Shown here: one piece after another, positions 15,980-61,000 of the stretch
Layout: every line of letters starts with the position of its first letter
Position numbering within the stretch: position 1 is the stretch's first letter
Virus record (IMG/VR): IMGVR_UViG_3300020392_000008
Location: 32,001 to 96,000 of that record
From: a virus
Direction: 5' to 3' (one strand)
Length of the DNA stretch: 64,000 bases
The notes under the pieces: model-generated
The model's input: the letters and a program-made list of their open reading frames with translations, nothing else
Databases searched by the model: none
Told to the model about the DNA's origin: nothing
Made by a program: the position numbers and the translations under genes

Positions 15980-17140
15980 ATGGAGATAAGAAAAAAATAC
16001 AATATAGAACTTCCAAAAGACATTCTAATGATACGAGATGTATTTAAAAAGAATGGCTATAAATTATATTTAGTAGGAGGCGCCGTTAGAGACGCGGTAT
16101 CTGGGATCACTCCTAAAGATTACGATTTAGCAACAGACGCGTTACCAGATGAGGTAGATAAAATGCTTTCTCCAATTTATAAAATGTTACCTATAGGAGA
16201 AAAATTTGGCATATGGCTTGCCATAACACCTAGTGGTGAATTTGAAATTGCTACTTTTAGAAAAGACGTAGGTACTGGCCGTAGACCAGATTCGGTTGAG
16301 TTTACAACTATAGACCAAGATGTTCTTAGAAGAGACTTAACAATAAATGCGTTATTCTATGATATTGAAAAACAAGAAATAGTTGATTTAGTTGGAGGAA
16401 TAGAAGATCTTAAAAATGGGGTAGTCAAATCCGTTGGCAATCCGGCTGATCGATTCGAAGACGATAAATTAAGAAAACTCAGAGCAATTCGTTTTGCCGG
16501 AGTAACAGGGTCTGAATTAGACAGAGAAATCCACCAATATTTATTAAAGGACCCTGGGCTTGAAGAAATCTCAGCGGAAAGAATAAGGGATGAGTTTTTA
16601 AAAGGTATAGCTAAATCATCTTCAGTTGTTTATTTTATGAACCTTTTAGATAAGTATAATTTTTTTAATTCAATATTTCCTAATTTAAATATAAATGCAA
16701 AATACGTAGAAGAAAAAGATTACATAATAAACCTAGCAACTCTTCTTAAAGAAAACGATTCAATTGAACTTAAAGATGTTTTAAATAAAGTAACTTATTC
16801 TAATGAAGAAATTAAAAACATATTATTTCTAAAATCTCTTGTTCACTTAAATGAAGAAAATGCACTTAACATTAAAAAGTCTCAATACAATACTTCTGTT
16901 ACAGATGAGCAAATATTAAAATTTGCTAAATTAAATGAACTAGATGAAAAATTAATACGTACTTTTATTCAATATATACCTAGTATAAGTGGAAAAGACG
17001 TAATGGATAAGATGAATATTAAAGGTGGACCTGAAGTTGGCGAATATATAAAAAAAATGGAAGCTGATATATTTAAAGACTTGATGTCAAATGAATCTTA
17101 CCGTTTTAAATACATAAAAGAATTTATAAGTTATGAATAA
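15980..17140 (+). CDS. cca: tRNA nucleotidyltransferase (class II CCA-adding/poly(A) polymerase family), no HD domain
   Basis: LYLVGGAVRD, KDYDLAT (DxD), EIATFR, RRDLTINA, RFEDDKLRKLRAIRF, ISAERIRDE motifs. Confidence 0.92.
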   Translation: MEIRKKYNIELPKDILMIRDVFKKNGYKLYLVGGAVRDAVSGITPKDYDLATDALPDEVDKMLSPIYKMLPIGEKFGIWLAITPSGEFEIATFRKDVGTGRRPDSVEFTTIDQDVLRRDLTINALFYDIEKQEIVDLVGGIEDLKNGVVKSVGNPADRFEDDKLRKLRAIRFAGVTGSELDREIHQYLLKDPGLEEISAERIRDEFLKGIAKSSSVVYFMNLLDKYNFFNSIFPNLNINAKYVEEKDYIINLATLLKENDSIELKDVLNKVTYSNEEIKNILFLKSLVHLNEENALNIKKSQYNTSVTDEQILKFAKLNELDEKLIRTFIQYIPSISGKDVMDKMNIKGGPEVGEYIKKMEADIFKDLMSNESYRFKYIKEFISYE

Positions 17141-17582
17141 AAAGCACATAAAATTGTACGAAAACTTTGATTTAAACGATGATAGTTATACAGAAATAAT
17201 TGACAAAAACGTATATCAAAGAGTAAGTGTATATAATTCTCCAGAAGAAACCAGTCAATGGGGAGACTCTATAGACAGTGATTCCGAAATAGAGCTAAAC
17301 AGAGTTGTTGTTAAATTTAATTTAGACATAAATTATAAACGCAGTGGAATAGAAGACATTACATTTAGATTAATTTCTATCGCATTAGACGGATCAATAA
17401 TAGACTATGATGGTAATGAAATAGAAAACTTTGATATAGTAGATGATGACATATCTTATGAAAAATATGAAACACAAATGGGAACGTTTCCACTATATTT
17501 AGGAGATATAGAAATAAACATGAACAAAACATTTGATACTAGCAAATGGAAATACGAAATAGCAATTGGTAACTTTAGATAA
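17133..17582 (+). CDS. acidic hypothetical protein with N-terminal CTS-like tag
   Basis: ORF overlapping the cca stop; begins MNKKHIKLYENF. Confidence 0.6.
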   Translation: MNKKHIKLYENFDLNDDSYTEIIDKNVYQRVSVYNSPEETSQWGDSIDSDSEIELNRVVVKFNLDINYKRSGIEDITFRLISIALDGSIIDYDGNEIENFDIVDDDISYEKYETQMGTFPLYLGDIEINMNKTFDTSKWKYEIAIGNFR

Positions 17583-17584
17583 TT

Positions 17585-18133
17585 ATGATTTTAAATGTAA
17601 GAAATAATAGCTTTGTATTTTTATTCCCTGAGAATTTTTTTACAAATTCAATTAAAGAAAAATATAAAGATTACTATCAAAGTTTAATACTTCCATATGA
17701 TACTATTGATGATTTTATGTCATCCACTGTTCAGCAGATAGATTTTCCATCTTGGAATATGCCAACGGCCGAACAAACTAGGCCCTTAGGTAAAAGACAA
17801 GACTATAAAAGTTCAAAACCACTAAAGGAATTATTTAACAGGGAAATTACTATAACTATGAAAATATCTGACGCTTATCTTAATTATTTTATTTTCTTAG
17901 AAAATTCATTAGAATTTTTAGATTTTTCAAATAAAAAACAAACACTTTCCCCTATAAGATTAATGATGTTGAATAATGAAGGATATTCAGTGTCTTCTAT
18001 TATATTTAATAATCCAATATTAACATCACAATCGGGCATTAAATTATCTTATAGTTCAGTAACACCTCAATTTAATACTTTTGACATAAAGTTTAAATAC
18101 TTTGATTTTGATTTAAAAGTTGATTTTAACTAA
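17585..18133 (+). CDS. tail tube-fold protein (T4 gp3/gp19-like tail completion)
   Basis: STVQQIDFPSW...ITITMKISDAYLNY...FDIKFKYFDF pattern typical of the gp3/tube family. Confidence 0.55.
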   Translation: MILNVRNNSFVFLFPENFFTNSIKEKYKDYYQSLILPYDTIDDFMSSTVQQIDFPSWNMPTAEQTRPLGKRQDYKSSKPLKELFNREITITMKISDAYLNYFIFLENSLEFLDFSNKKQTLSPIRLMMLNNEGYSVSSIIFNNPILTSQSGIKLSYSSVTPQFNTFDIKFKYFDFDLKVDFN

Positions 18134-18611
18134 TTTCAATTCTTTCTTTTTGAATACTATATAATTTATTAAGGGTTAATAAATGAAACATGCATATTGC
18201 TAATATTCCAACTATTTCGGCTACTAATAAACTAAATGGTAAAAATAAAAGCCCAGAAAAATATACCCATTTACAAAATTTATAATTATTTGAAACATAT
18301 AATGGGTAAATGCAACACCCAAAAAATATTATTGCAAAAATATTATGTAAATCGGGATACATACTTACTGAAAAAGAAGTTACTAATAATAAGCAACACG
18401 CCGAAGCTCTCCATTTAGGTATACCTACTAAGTAATATGCTGTTAAAGAATTAGCTATAATAAAAATAGGTTGGGCCTCGGTGTTCCAATATTGAGATAT
18501 CGATTTTTCATAACCCGAAAATAATAAGCAAATAAATGGAGAAAAAGCAGCGAAGAGAACTACGCAAACTCTTAACAAGTAGTCAAACCTGGTTATATTT
18601 CCACTAATCAT
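18126..18611 (-). CDS. multi-pass membrane protein
   Basis: 5-6 hydrophobic segments; SISQYW and LHNIFA motifs. Confidence 0.65.
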   Translation of the reverse strand: MISGNITRFDYLLRVCVVLFAAFSPFICLLFSGYEKSISQYWNTEAQPIFIIANSLTAYYLVGIPKWRASACCLLLVTSFSVSMYPDLHNIFAIIFFGCCIYPLYVSNNYKFCKWVYFSGLLFLPFSLLVAEIVGILAICMFHLLTLNKLYSIQKERIEIS

Positions 18612-18694
18612 TTCCTGTTTTCATAATATAAATTTTAGATTATAGAGAAGATCTATAATTTTATTTATCTTATGCACAAGAAACTTTTATTATG

Positions 18695-18946
18695 TTAAAG
18701 GTTACCTAGTCCTTTAAATGACGTTTCTCTCAAAACAACCTTAAGTAATCCAGATTTTTCAGCTTCTGTTTCAATTATAGGGTATTCATCCGAAGCAGCA
18801 TCGTTTATCATGCTTATCGCGTCGGTTAAATTTTCACTAACAGGTTCGTTGATTTGTATTGCAATTCCTAACTTTCCAGTGTCTATGACATGTTTAATTA
18901 TTGTTCCAACCGTTTCTAATTTTGTTTCTAATTTTTCCCAATCCAT
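18695..18946 (-). CDS. hypothetical protein
   Basis: 83-aa ORF coupled to the upstream fibre-associated gene. Confidence 0.55.
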   Translation of the reverse strand: MDWEKLETKLETVGTIIKHVIDTGKLGIAIQINEPVSENLTDAISMINDAASDEYPIIETEAEKSGLLKVVLRETSFKGLGNL

Positions 18947-59847: not shown

Positions 59848-59878
59848 TTATAGCTAAGTTTTTATACAAAAAAATTAA

Positions 59879-59924
59879 AGGCACAGATAGCTAATCAATT
59901 ATTTTTAATTAGCTGTTTGTGCTT
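59879..59924 (+). terminator. long RNA hairpin, probable terminator/stability element
   Basis: GCACAGATAGCTAAT (59881-95) pairs with ATTAGCTGTTTGTGC (59908-22) using two G-U pairs. Confidence 0.55.
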
Positions 59925-59938
59925 ATTTAGCTTTATAA

Positions 59939-60358
59939 ATGGACTCTAATAAAATAACATCAATTCCCTTATTTGAAAACTATTGTAAACAATCTACAAT
60001 AGATAATAAGATTATTGACTGTAATATTGGAGAAAATTCTATTAAATTAAAAGTAGCCTCTACTCCTAAATCTCATTCTATCGGGTATCAAAATGTAAAA
60101 GAAGAACCTTCTGATAAAGAAGGAATATTATTTGTATACCCTAGCGAATGCCTTTCATCTTTCTGGATGAAAAATGTAAATTTCCCATTAGACATACTCT
60201 TCTTTAATTCAAATAAAGAACTAGTAGGCAATCAAACTATGCCTAATAATAGTTACCCAAAAACTTTTAAATGTAATAAACCCTTTCAATATGCAGTTGA
60301 AACAAAAGCAGGTTGGTTTGACAGGAATGGAAATAAAGACATAAAATTATCAATATGA
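59939..60358 (+). CDS. DUF192 family protein
   Basis: VASTP....GY, GILFVY, FWMKNVNFPLDILF, YAVETKAG. Confidence 0.85.
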   Translation: MDSNKITSIPLFENYCKQSTIDNKIIDCNIGENSIKLKVASTPKSHSIGYQNVKEEPSDKEGILFVYPSECLSSFWMKNVNFPLDILFFNSNKELVGNQTMPNNSYPKTFKCNKPFQYAVETKAGWFDRNGNKDIKLSI

Positions 60359-60534
60359 AAACATCATATAATAGAAAAGACTTAGATTGTAAAATATGCG
60401 GCGAAACTGTAAATAACGTAGGACTTGAAGCAACTGCGGTCACCTGTTGGAAATGTGTTAATGAACAGCTAAAAGGAATGCCTATTTTTATATCAGACTC
60501 TTGTGAAAATGAAGAAAATGAAAACGAGGAATAA
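60355..60534 (+). CDS. 59-aa zinc-finger protein with acidic tail (not in ORF track)
   Basis: Hand translation MKTSYNRKDLDCKICGETVNNVGLEATAVTCWKCVNEQL...ENEE; CxxC-x16-CxxC; ATGA overlap. Confidence 0.75.
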   Translation: MKTSYNRKDLDCKICGETVNNVGLEATAVTCWKCVNEQLKGMPIFISDSCENEENENEE

Positions 60535-61000
60535 ATACGTATCACTGTATAATTCATTCAAGTATAATGATTATTATGAAGTATTACTTGAAGAATATTC
60601 TAATCAATCTAAATATAAAACATTTAAAAGCTTTGTAGTAAATAAAGCAAAGAGGGTAAAGGATATATCTAAAAATGTTATAAACGCCTTTAAAAAGGAA
60701 GGAACAGAAACAACTGACATGCTAAGTGTTTTTAACAGACAGCTTCGTAAAAAATTAAATTTAAAAACTAGAAAAGATGTTCCTACAAAAGAAGAATTAG
60801 ATGAAGCATTAAATCAATTAAAAGACATACCCAAACTTCTTCCATATGCAATCGTAATGTTAGCAACTCCCATACCTGGTTCCTCAACAATGTATACCGT
60901 CTTTGCTTATTTTCTAAAGAAAAGATCTAATGGTAAAATAAACCTGTTGCCAGATTCTTTTGATGACATATTATCAACTAAAGTAGATAACAAAGACTAG
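60518..61000 (+). CDS. hypothetical protein with hydrophobic PIPG hairpin
   Basis: EALNQLKDIPK...IVMLATPIPGS motif. Confidence 0.6.
   Translation: MKTRNKYVSLYNSFKYNDYYEVLLEEYSNQSKYKTFKSFVVNKAKRVKDISKNVINAFKKEGTETTDMLSVFNRQLRKKLNLKTRKDVPTKEELDEALNQLKDIPKLLPYAIVMLATPIPGSSTMYTVFAYFLKKRSNGKINLLPDSFDDILSTKVDNKD

Follow-up and report, generated by a model that had tools for sequence, protein, structure and literature searches.

Why does the same short peptide stand at the start of a dozen otherwise unrelated genes of one phage? The question is raised by a window of 64,000 nucleotides on a contig (G000) that is a fragment of an uncultured, T4-like jumbo myovirus. The contig makes up about 41% of one genome of roughly 230 kb with a G+C content of 29%. 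A close relative in culture for which a virion proteome exists was sought and not found, the nearest deposited records being unannotated huge-phage genomes. We favor the view, with a probability of roughly 0.6, that the peptide common to these N-termini serves as a T4-type capsid-targeting propeptide. Because this tag matches both the load-then-cut signal of T4 and a repeat of the phage's own scaffold, about a dozen unrelated late proteins are, as judged from sequence, probably carried inside the virus particle.

The earlier note on this DNA had quoted eleven N-termini, all of which are present in the sequence at the starts it assigned, and had proposed that a common motif heads unrelated ORFs. 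The regular expression [ILVMF]-x-x-[FY]-x-[EDNS]-[FYW], scored within the first 20 residues, matched 10 of the 110 proteins of the contig, while 1.1 matches were expected from shuffled N-termini (maximum of 5 in 2000 shuffles) and 1.25 from internal windows. On independent DNA of a relative, outside this contig, 6 matches were found with 0.59 expected. The AT-rich composition thus cannot account for the matches. The N-terminal motif is real; it is enriched at, and restricted to, N-termini, independent DNA included. The bodies behind the 36 tags of the lineage had no mutual BLASTP match at E ≤ 1e-3, so the proposal of unrelated ORFs stands as well. The tag sits outside the Pfam domains of its proteins, and among their homologs elsewhere some lack a tag and some gain one. 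A ZOOPS-type EM motif search of the N-termini overfitted and its results were not used.

The canonical form of the tag is M-K-x-x-[IVL]-K-x-[FY]-x-x-[FY]. The best conserved positions in the lineage are the aromatic pair, kept in 25 of 36 tags and missing from 11, and the preceding [IVL]-K, not the putative cutting motif. A [LIVM]-x-E sequence lies at most 26 residues from the start in 32 of 36 tagged proteins compared with 92 of 206 untagged ones. The tags of the lineage are looser than those of its relative G005, in that the distance to [LIV]-x-E varies and 4 of 36 are without it.

The window contains nine canonical tags (starts 17133, 53643, 53925, 55113, 56036, 56104, 59491, 59939 and 60509) and three short or variant ones (starts 49483, 52346 and 52861). 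The first canonical tag, residues 1-12, belongs to a 149-aa protein without an assigned family (17133..17582, + strand); the homolog in G006, a distant relative, carries a tag as well. On the - strand canonical tags are carried by a DUF5824 protein of 261 aa assigned by Pfam (52858..53643), a basic 92-aa protein (53647..53925) whose tag ends in L-N-E, a phrog_7595 protein of 193 aa (54532..55113), whose homologs in other phages are without the tag, and a 255-aa protein (55269..56036) with a late-type box at 56068-56062. On the + strand they are found on a 377-aa protein with no family assigned (56104..57237; late-type box 56077-56083) and on a very acidic 118-aa protein (59491..59847; late-type box 59464-59473), whose tag again ends in L-N-E. 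They are also found there on a DUF192 protein (59939..60358), in which the tag core is residues 12-15 and the Pfam domain begins at residue 35, and on a 163-aa protein (60509..61000) with the core at residues 14-17 and a tentatively assigned start. A variant tag heads an HD-domain protein (49483..50019, + strand; Pfam HD from residue 58); its G005 homolog is untagged and its G006 homolog starts tag-like. The two short tags are those of a 718-aa CHAP, peptidoglycan-binding and GH19-like lysin (50190..52346, - strand; late-type box 52368-52362), whose 10-residue tag is the closest to the capsid targeting sequence (CTS) of T4, and of a NUDIX hydrolase (52361..52861, - strand; Pfam NUDIX from residue 27), whose tag ends in L-N-E. 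The GTG start of the hydrolase and its tag are both kept in the ortholog of the relative L001.

A T4-late-like promoter box, ATAAATA, peaks 20-30 nt upstream of start codons (32 compared with about 3 per bin). Among tagged genes 18 of 35 have it upstream, compared with 24 of 206 untagged ones (odds ratio 8, p 4e-7), the latter including sheath, baseplate and fibre genes. The tag was not equally common on replication proteins, a point on which the earlier note could have failed: ten replication and recombination proteins were untagged, as were TerL and the sheath, baseplate and capsid proteins.

Pfam searches for S77, Gp23 and Portal_T4 gave no match on the window's contig or on G001 and G002. 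The head genes evidently fall in the part missing from G000, and were reached via the bridging contig of a close relative (G003), which belongs to the same lineage as the window, connects both ends of the known sequence and is 99.97% identical to G001 and 76-88% identical to the window's contig. This contig encodes an S77 (gp21-type) protease (Pfam PF03420, E 5e-12; T4 gp21, PDB 5JBL, E 5e-7), in which the columns of His87 and Ser140/142/143, within motifs aligned to T4 gp21, do not vary among 13 homologs. Fusion joins this protease and a scaffold of 11 repeats of 14 residues in one protein of about 665 aa, and a Gp23 capsid gene (Pfam E 1e-38) follows directly downstream. The repeats are predicted to be helical, with low AlphaFold confidence within them. 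The ~660-aa protease-scaffold family, at full-length size, comprises more than 4,200 sequence clusters in metagenomes. Within the window, two neighboring genes (56104-57237 and 57246-58871) had been considered as protease and capsid genes and were rejected, having no Pfam, PHROG or phage-database match and poor Atlas models; PDB sequence searches with two large window proteins gave no match.

The core of the scaffold repeat, [FY]-x-x-[FY]-[LIV]-x-E, is the core of the tag. Most non-terminal matches to the strict motif lie inside the protease-fused scaffold, namely 9 of 13 in the lineage and 11 of 14 in G006. A PSSM of the near-identical scaffold repeats is too narrow for most tags; built from the repeats only, it finds just three true tags, and its fourth match is a topoisomerase subunit's own motif. 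We therefore used a BLOSUM comparison to the repeat consensus. With a score of at least 20, 8 N-termini resembled the repeat consensus and the CTS of T4, compared with about 1 among shuffled or internal sequences. The best match to the repeat unit is the tag of the DUF5824 protein (16.4 bits with the repeat PSSM, BLOSUM score of 29).

Tag and fused scaffold also occur together in other genomes. The same protease-scaffold fusion is found in two distant relatives, G005, with 53 tags vs 4.4 expected, and G006, with 22 tags vs 3.8 expected. In the relative G004, on the other hand, the protease stands alone, the scaffold is acidic and no protein is tagged. At the level of genomes this co-occurrence rests on three positive lineages and one negative. 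In G005 the Glu is residue 13 in 33 of 53 tags, and positions that had not been selected for are conserved as well, with an aliphatic residue at +4 in 89% and Glu at +6 in 77%.

Mutagenesis of the CTS of T4 IPIII assigned targeting to the aromatic residues 4 and 7 and cutting to residues 8 and 10 (PMC9026906). The tag and the scaffold repeat core keep all four positions. Together with the S77 protease and gp23 capsid protein of the lineage, the repeat match, the late-type box and the absence of the tag from replication, tail and capsid genes, this bears out the likeness to the T4 sequence that had been suggested for this locus. In both systems a short N-terminal leader stands on unrelated proteins, an aromatic pair three apart is followed by aliphatic-x-Glu, a gp21-family protease and a gp23-family capsid protein are present, and the late promoter box is of the TATAAATA type. 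In both, the prohead core would consist of a gp21-homologous protease domain and a helical scaffold, with degradation after Glu expected. There are also differences. T4 tags a handful of proteins, whereas at least 36 of about 240 are tagged in this lineage and at least 53 of 428 in G005. Compared with that of T4, the leader has 3-4 extra residues at its start and, in this lineage, a variable spacer before the cutting motif. The predicted cargo consists largely of enzymes and unassigned proteins, while that of T4 consists of small basic proteins. Protease and scaffold are one protein here and separate in T4 (gp21 and gp22), and in contrast to gp22 the scaffold is built from arrayed 14-residue repeats, each with the cutting motif. 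We know of no T4 counterpart described for such tandem tag-like repeats fused to the protease, which are the likely docking partner.

Binding, cutting, packaging and ejection of tagged proteins we infer as follows. Tagged proteins would be made late in infection, alongside the virion proteins. The aromatic pair [FY]-x-x-[FY], following [IVL]-K, would dock them onto a prohead core formed by the gp21-type protease and its fused helical scaffold, which offers the same motif in tandem 14-residue repeats. Once the capsid shell had closed around the core, the protease would cut after the Glu of [LIV]-x-E, which would chop the scaffold into short peptides and remove the tags. The freed cargo would remain in the head and could exit with the DNA. 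It would include the CHAP/GH19 lysin, NUDIX, HD and DUF192 proteins, a class III cyclase and many proteins of unassigned family. More tentatively, and with somewhat less than even chances, the address tag may itself be one of the 14-residue repeats of the scaffold, in a single copy. Cargo would then enter the protease-scaffold core as if it were scaffold, and the same cuts would release it.

An alternative, improbable in our view yet the best of those considered, is that the peptide is simply where the head protease or some other late protease cuts, e.g. an activation propeptide, and plays no part in capsid addressing. Tag and repeats would then be alike as co-substrates, and their likeness could reflect a shared protease site only and not docking. 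The cutting motif [LIV]-x-E is indeed among the parts common to tag and scaffold. However, the strongest conservation falls on the aromatic pair and [IVL]-K, and these aromatics are targeting residues in T4 (PMC9026906). Moreover, a gp21-type protease works inside the prohead, so that its substrates must get there anyway.

Slightly less probable still is a cassette at the level of DNA or RNA: a late promoter, a ribosome site and the first codons would move as one unit by recombination, or would tune translation, and the encoded peptide would be functionless. The link of the tag to the ATAAATA box would fit, as would tag-like tails at gene junctions, which resemble recombination scars, and the lower rate of synonymous changes in tag codons (0.24 vs 0.37 in the bodies), which may indicate some degree of constraint at the nucleotide level. 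Yet many tagged genes lie within operons and have no box of their own, and substitutions preserve the class of the residue (F/Y, E/D/N/S) rather than the bases. It is also the residue order that is enriched when the N-termini are compared with shuffled versions of themselves, and the motif is present within proteins too, namely in the scaffold repeats and a fused ORF, where a translation start plays no role.

Docking of late proteins onto another machine, be it a chaperonin, the ClpP-like protease of the phage, a route of secretion or a compartment inside the cell, appears less likely again. GroEL, GroES and a ClpP-like protein are all encoded on the window's contig, and the N-terminus of the T4 head protein gp23 targets GroEL, at least according to the title of one paper. 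Targeting of the phage GroEL by the tag was nevertheless dropped as an idea, because neither GroEL nor GroES is present in G005 and G006, the relatives with the most tags. A ClpP-like gene is present in the untagged G004, and docking elsewhere would leave the match to the scaffold repeat unexplained. Chance N-termini rich in Lys, Asn, Ile, Phe and Tyr, residues with mostly AT-rich codons, were refuted as an explanation by the shuffle controls, because the enrichment persists over shuffles and on independent DNA, and G004, with 27% G+C, has none.

Other systems share parts of the proposed capsid targeting. The jumbo myoviruses phiKZ (gp175) and SPN3US (gp245) likewise pack many proteins and have a gp21-related protease that cuts after Glu; that of SPN3US prefers Ser at P1', comparable to the N-E|S of the G005 tags. 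Encapsulin cargo-loading peptides are short and portable and address unrelated enzymes into an HK97-fold shell. As a rule they sit at the C-terminus, bind directly to the shell protein and stay uncut, so that the analogy to the tag is one of working principle only. The propeptides of phiKZ and SPN3US are mostly longer than 100 residues, with no common short portable leader (PMC5694885).

If the tag is indeed such a scaffold repeat, uncultured marine jumbo phages of a very abundant group would load 10-15% of their proteome into the head. This could exceed 50 different proteins, including lysins and enzymes of nucleotide-signal and RNA-repair type, and the injected proteome could be read from sequence alone. 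The non-DNA cargo injected by phages is largely uncharted beyond a few model phages. Because injected proteins are active ahead of all phage gene expression, they are prime candidates for counter-defence and take-over functions, and a sequence rule for cargo would make it possible to list the injected proteomes for thousands of uncultured phages. The match of tag and repeat is also a concrete candidate answer to the question of what the CTS of T4 binds, and a short portable tag with a matching scaffold could serve as a tool to load capsids with foreign proteins.

The earlier note had further described tags at C-termini, following an x-x-E-S site. Such strings exist but are not enriched, with 4 seen vs 2.2 expected, and the strict motif occurs at C-termini 0, 1, 1 and 2 times in the four genomes or lineages; a general C-terminal tag is therefore not supported. 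The tails look like relics of fusion or fission junctions, and three of the four have a tagged ORF directly downstream. The exception is a 165-aa protein (35931..36428, + strand), whose tail L-I-P-x-F-x-x-F-I is kept in the G001 ortholog and whose E-S site is not. The tail of the Pfam-assigned CCA-adding enzyme (15980..17140, + strand) runs into the start of the tagged gene at 17133 and is absent from the G005 homolog; it is probably a junction relic. That of a 564-aa protein (47792..49486, + strand; late-type box 47763-47772) likewise overlaps the tagged HD gene at its start and is also found in the L001 ortholog, though no HD gene lies downstream there. Finally, the tail of a 107-aa protein (53932..54255, - strand; late-type box 54279-54273) is homologous to an internal tag of an L001 ORF, where this protein (domain A) and the basic 92-aa protein (domain B) are one fused protein.

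The earlier note had proposed that a short motif begins many otherwise unrelated proteins of this virus, and all eleven of the N-termini it quoted were present in the sequence. The pattern [ILVMF]-x-x-[FY]-x-[EDNS]-[FYW], searched in residues 1 to 20, matched 10 of 110 proteins of G000, the 105-kb IMG/VR virus contig from which the window is taken (bases 32001-96000). Shuffling of residues 2-20 of each G000 protein gave a mean of 1.1 matches with a maximum of 5 in 2000 trials, and random internal windows of the same proteins gave 1.25. In DNA that the earlier note had not covered, i.e. 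the part of the closely related contig G001 beyond G000, 6 of 66 proteins matched with 0.59 expected. Thus the N-terminal motif is indeed commoner than in shuffled sequences, and sequence composition is not its explanation. Curation yielded 36 tagged proteins of about 240 on three contigs. Of the 36 tags, 25 were canonical (M-K-x-x-[IVL]-K-x-[FY]-x-x-[FY]) and usually had their first aromatic residue at position 6-8, and 11 were looser variants; the window held nine canonical tags and three variants, the latter on the lysin, NUDIX and HD proteins. [LIVM]-x-E was found within 26 residues in 32/36 tagged vs 92/206 untagged proteins, and [LI]-x-E was enriched genome-wide in the first 24 residues (72 vs 45 ± 5).

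The bodies behind the tags had been described as unrelated, which BLASTP bore out with no similarity among them at E ≤ 1e-3. Where a Pfam domain was found, it began past the tag (NUDIX at residue 27, HD at 58, CHAP at 63, DUF192 at 35 and cyclase at 24). The motif was kept in G001 orthologs, with single residues swapped within their class. Among homologs of the bodies in other genomes the tag was gained or lost: relatives of a 193-aa protein in Flavobacterium phage immuto and pelagiphages are without it, as are the HD and CCA homologs in the distant relative G005, while the homolog of the 17133 protein in another distant relative, G006, is tagged.

The T4 late promoter is TATAAATA with the core ATAAATA. 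In 32 genes this core began 20-30 nt upstream of the start codon, compared with about 2-6 in other 10-nt bins and 2 on the antisense strand. It preceded 18/35 tagged vs 24/206 untagged genes (odds ratio 8, p 4e-7), and the untagged genes with this box included those of the tail sheath, the baseplate wedge and large fibre-like proteins. Between 47.7 and 61 kb of the window the tagged genes form six co-directional units, each headed by an ATAAATA-type box. The earlier note expected the tag to be rarer on early and replication proteins; none of the ten replication and recombination proteins checked was tagged (split family-B polymerase, primase, both topoisomerase II subunits, SbcCD-like, UvsX-like and UvsW-like proteins and RNR). 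Terminase, sheath, baseplate and capsid proteins were without the tag as well.

G000 has a G+C content of 29% and is 41% complete by CheckV; its genes include those of a T4-type large terminase (30341-32305) and of a gp6-like protein of the baseplate wedge (27701-29362). The 125.6-kb contig G001 matches G000 colinearly over positions 57334-103681 of the latter (~70-85% nucleotide identity) and extends ~72 kb beyond it. A third contig, G003, with a length of 88.9 kb, shares 99.97% identity with the far end of G001 and 76-88% with the start of G000. Together the three close a circle of roughly 230 kb. The terminase was only 28-33% identical to its nearest relatives from huge uncultured phages, Sphingomonas phage PAU and Tenacibaculum phage PTm1, and, judged by such sequence comparison, the named phages nearest to the lineage are only distant ones. 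A marine flavobacterium is the probable host. ClpP-like, GroES-like and GroEL-like proteins are encoded at G000 839-1417 (-), 2887-3186 (-) and 18022-19623 (-), respectively. Three distant, nearly complete genomes (G004, G005 and G006) were reached via the ClpP-like gene, which all of them possess; GroEL and GroES were not found in these three. An untagged T4-type DNA alpha-glucosyltransferase is encoded at 45959-47386 (+) of the window (Pfam AGT, E 1e-30), which suggests DNA with glucosylated hydroxymethyl-pyrimidine. The family-B DNA polymerase of G003 is split into two genes ~57 kb apart, one coding for the exonuclease plus the beginning of the polymerase domain, the other for the remainder (L065:5895-7346 (-) and L068:3901-5316 (-)). 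A block of ~65 small genes at 45.6-72.6 kb of G001 (53-80 kb of its reverse complement), located between tag-rich regions, had no tags vs 0.6 expected; it probably represents an early region or an accessory one.

Pfam models of the T4 protease, capsid and portal had no match on G000, G001 and G002. On G003, the contig of a close relative and not G000 itself, the gene at 38403-40400 matched Peptidase_S77 (Pfam E 5e-12) and the solved T4 gp21 protease 5JBL (E 5e-7), and, in the motifs that align with T4 gp21, the columns of His and Ser did not vary across 13 homologs. A gene for a Gp23-family major capsid protein follows directly (E 1e-38). The protease is part of a protein of 665 aa, of which it forms residues 1-200; residues ~300-460 are made up of eleven 14-residue repeats in tandem, whose core is [FY]-x-x-[FY]-[LIV]-x-E, and these repeats were predicted with low confidence to be long helices. 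The protease-scaffold gene has a TATAAATAA box upstream and probably starts with GTG. Its family is very common in metagenomes: among 8,000 candidates scored, matches of this size (~660 aa) came from more than 4,200 clusters.

At the level of sequence, the core of the tag is the core of this scaffold repeat. Three tags were near-copies of the repeat unit with 10-16 bits by a PSSM made from the repeats only (0.18 expected from shuffling); a fourth match was rejected as a tag, since the motif is intrinsic to the N-terminus of a topoisomerase subunit. Because the repeats are nearly identical to one another this PSSM is narrow, and N-termini were therefore compared with the repeat consensus by BLOSUM62. 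Scores of at least 20 were reached by 8 N-termini of the lineage (1.2 shuffled, 0.6 internal), 7 of G006 (1.7 and 1.5) and none of G004 (1.4 and 1.6). The T4 capsid targeting sequence (CTS) as a query gave the same picture (lineage 8 vs 0.9, G006 9 vs 1.2, G004 3 vs 1.0-2.8). The strict motif [FY]-x-[EDNS]-[FYW]-[ILV]-x-E was almost confined to the N-termini of proteins and the scaffold; of the matches away from termini, 9/13 in the lineage and 11/14 in G006 fell in the scaffold protein. No description of such a leader and scaffold system was found in the open-access papers searched.

G005 (294 kb) and G006 (248 kb) possess the protease-repeat fusion of the lineage, and the N-terminal pattern matched 53 (4.4 expected) and 22 (3.8 expected) of their proteins, respectively. 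The leader of G005 is highly regular, M-K-N-[LI]-P-T-[FY]-[ED]-[ED]-F-[VLI]-N-E followed by Ser or Ala, with the first aromatic residue at position 7 in 37/53 and Glu at position 13 in 33/53 tags. Tag positions outside the selection were conserved too (+4 aliphatic in 89%, +6 Glu in 77%), and one G005 leader is nearly identical to the T4 CTS. In G004 (232 kb, G+C 27%) protease and scaffold are separate genes like those of T4: a 214-aa stand-alone protease is followed by an acidic scaffold and then the capsid gene. G004 showed no such tags (pattern 6 vs 2.7 expected, strict motif 0). Its N-termini include a cluster with another form, M-K-I-T-K-x-E-L-x-x-[LI]-I-x-E-E, shared with Flavobacterium phage immuto, which is a candidate second leader class; examples are at 60493-61266 (-) and 150915-151484 (-) of G004 (L074-L085), and the form is also found at L011 12989-15049. 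Since the tags accompany the fusion in G005 and G006 and the other leader form the stand-alone protease in G004, the leader class appears to go with the scaffold type in these few genomes of four lineages.

T4 internal proteins have a CTS of ~10 residues that is removed by one cut by gp21, and foreign proteins fused to it get packaged. Suppressor analysis of IPIII assigned targeting mainly to residues 4 and 7 (Tyr, Phe) and processing to residues 8 and 10 (Ile, Glu) (PMC9026906). These four positions correspond to those conserved in the lineage tags and scaffold repeats, consistent with the likeness to the CTS suggested by the earlier note. A tag that is a cutting site only is hard to separate from one that targets as well, but would leave the aromatic pair, its best conserved part, unexplained. 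A nucleotide-level cassette instead of a functional peptide has some support in that synonymous changes were fewer in tag codons than in bodies (0.24 vs 0.37), yet it explains neither the internal copies of the motif nor the conservation of residue class. The lack of GroEL in G005 and G006 makes it unlikely that the proteins are directed to the phage chaperonin, and chance is excluded by the shuffled N-termini.

Besides the N-terminal tag, for which we favor a targeting role, a C-terminal version had been proposed; this was not enriched. A C-terminal propeptide would have a precedent, as C-terminal processing is known for T4 gp21 and Alt. The tail of the protein at 53932-54255 is homologous to a tag inside one 186-aa ORF of L001, a relative's stretch with orthologs of the window genes, where this protein is joined to its neighbour (53647-53925); the window has a split gene instead, with the tag in duplicate. 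Its first domain has an N-terminal tag in G005 and lies behind a tag and another domain in G006. The tails of the CCA enzyme and the 47792 protein overlap the starts of tagged genes, and L001, which lacks the HD gene, retains the 47792 tail. The 35931 tail is not adjacent to a tagged gene and is conserved in G001. Setting this last tail aside, we read the C-terminal tails as probable scars or joints of module shuffling at the tag-coding sequence and not as a second address class, and internal tags as occurring now and then in two-module proteins. The strict motif lies 90-115 residues inside the proteins encoded at G003 52653-53603 (+) and G005 183461-184231 (-), which may each consist of two modules and have their tag and cutting site internally.

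Just beyond the window, at G000 96057-96764 (L114:57-764 (-)), a tagged gene with a late-type box upstream encodes a protein whose class III adenylate/guanylate cyclase domain begins at residue 24 (Pfam E 9e-23), making it a candidate for a packaged enzyme of nucleotide signalling. Within the tagged cluster of the window, 57246-58871 (+) encodes a 541-aa protein that had no database match and was not recognisable as a capsid protein. Its middle part is Lys-rich and Gly/Ala-hydrophobic, residues 14-24 are a weak tag-like string ending in L-N-E, and it may be a membrane-active ejection protein. The gene of the tagged 193-aa protein forms a two-gene cassette (54257-55113 (-)) with a small cupin-like gene downstream. 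In Flavobacterium phage immuto and Tenacibaculum phage pT24 the two genes are neighbours as well and lie among replication genes, and the C-terminal domain of the 193-aa protein is also found in pelagiphages, roseophages and Nitrosopumilaceae spindle-shaped viruses.
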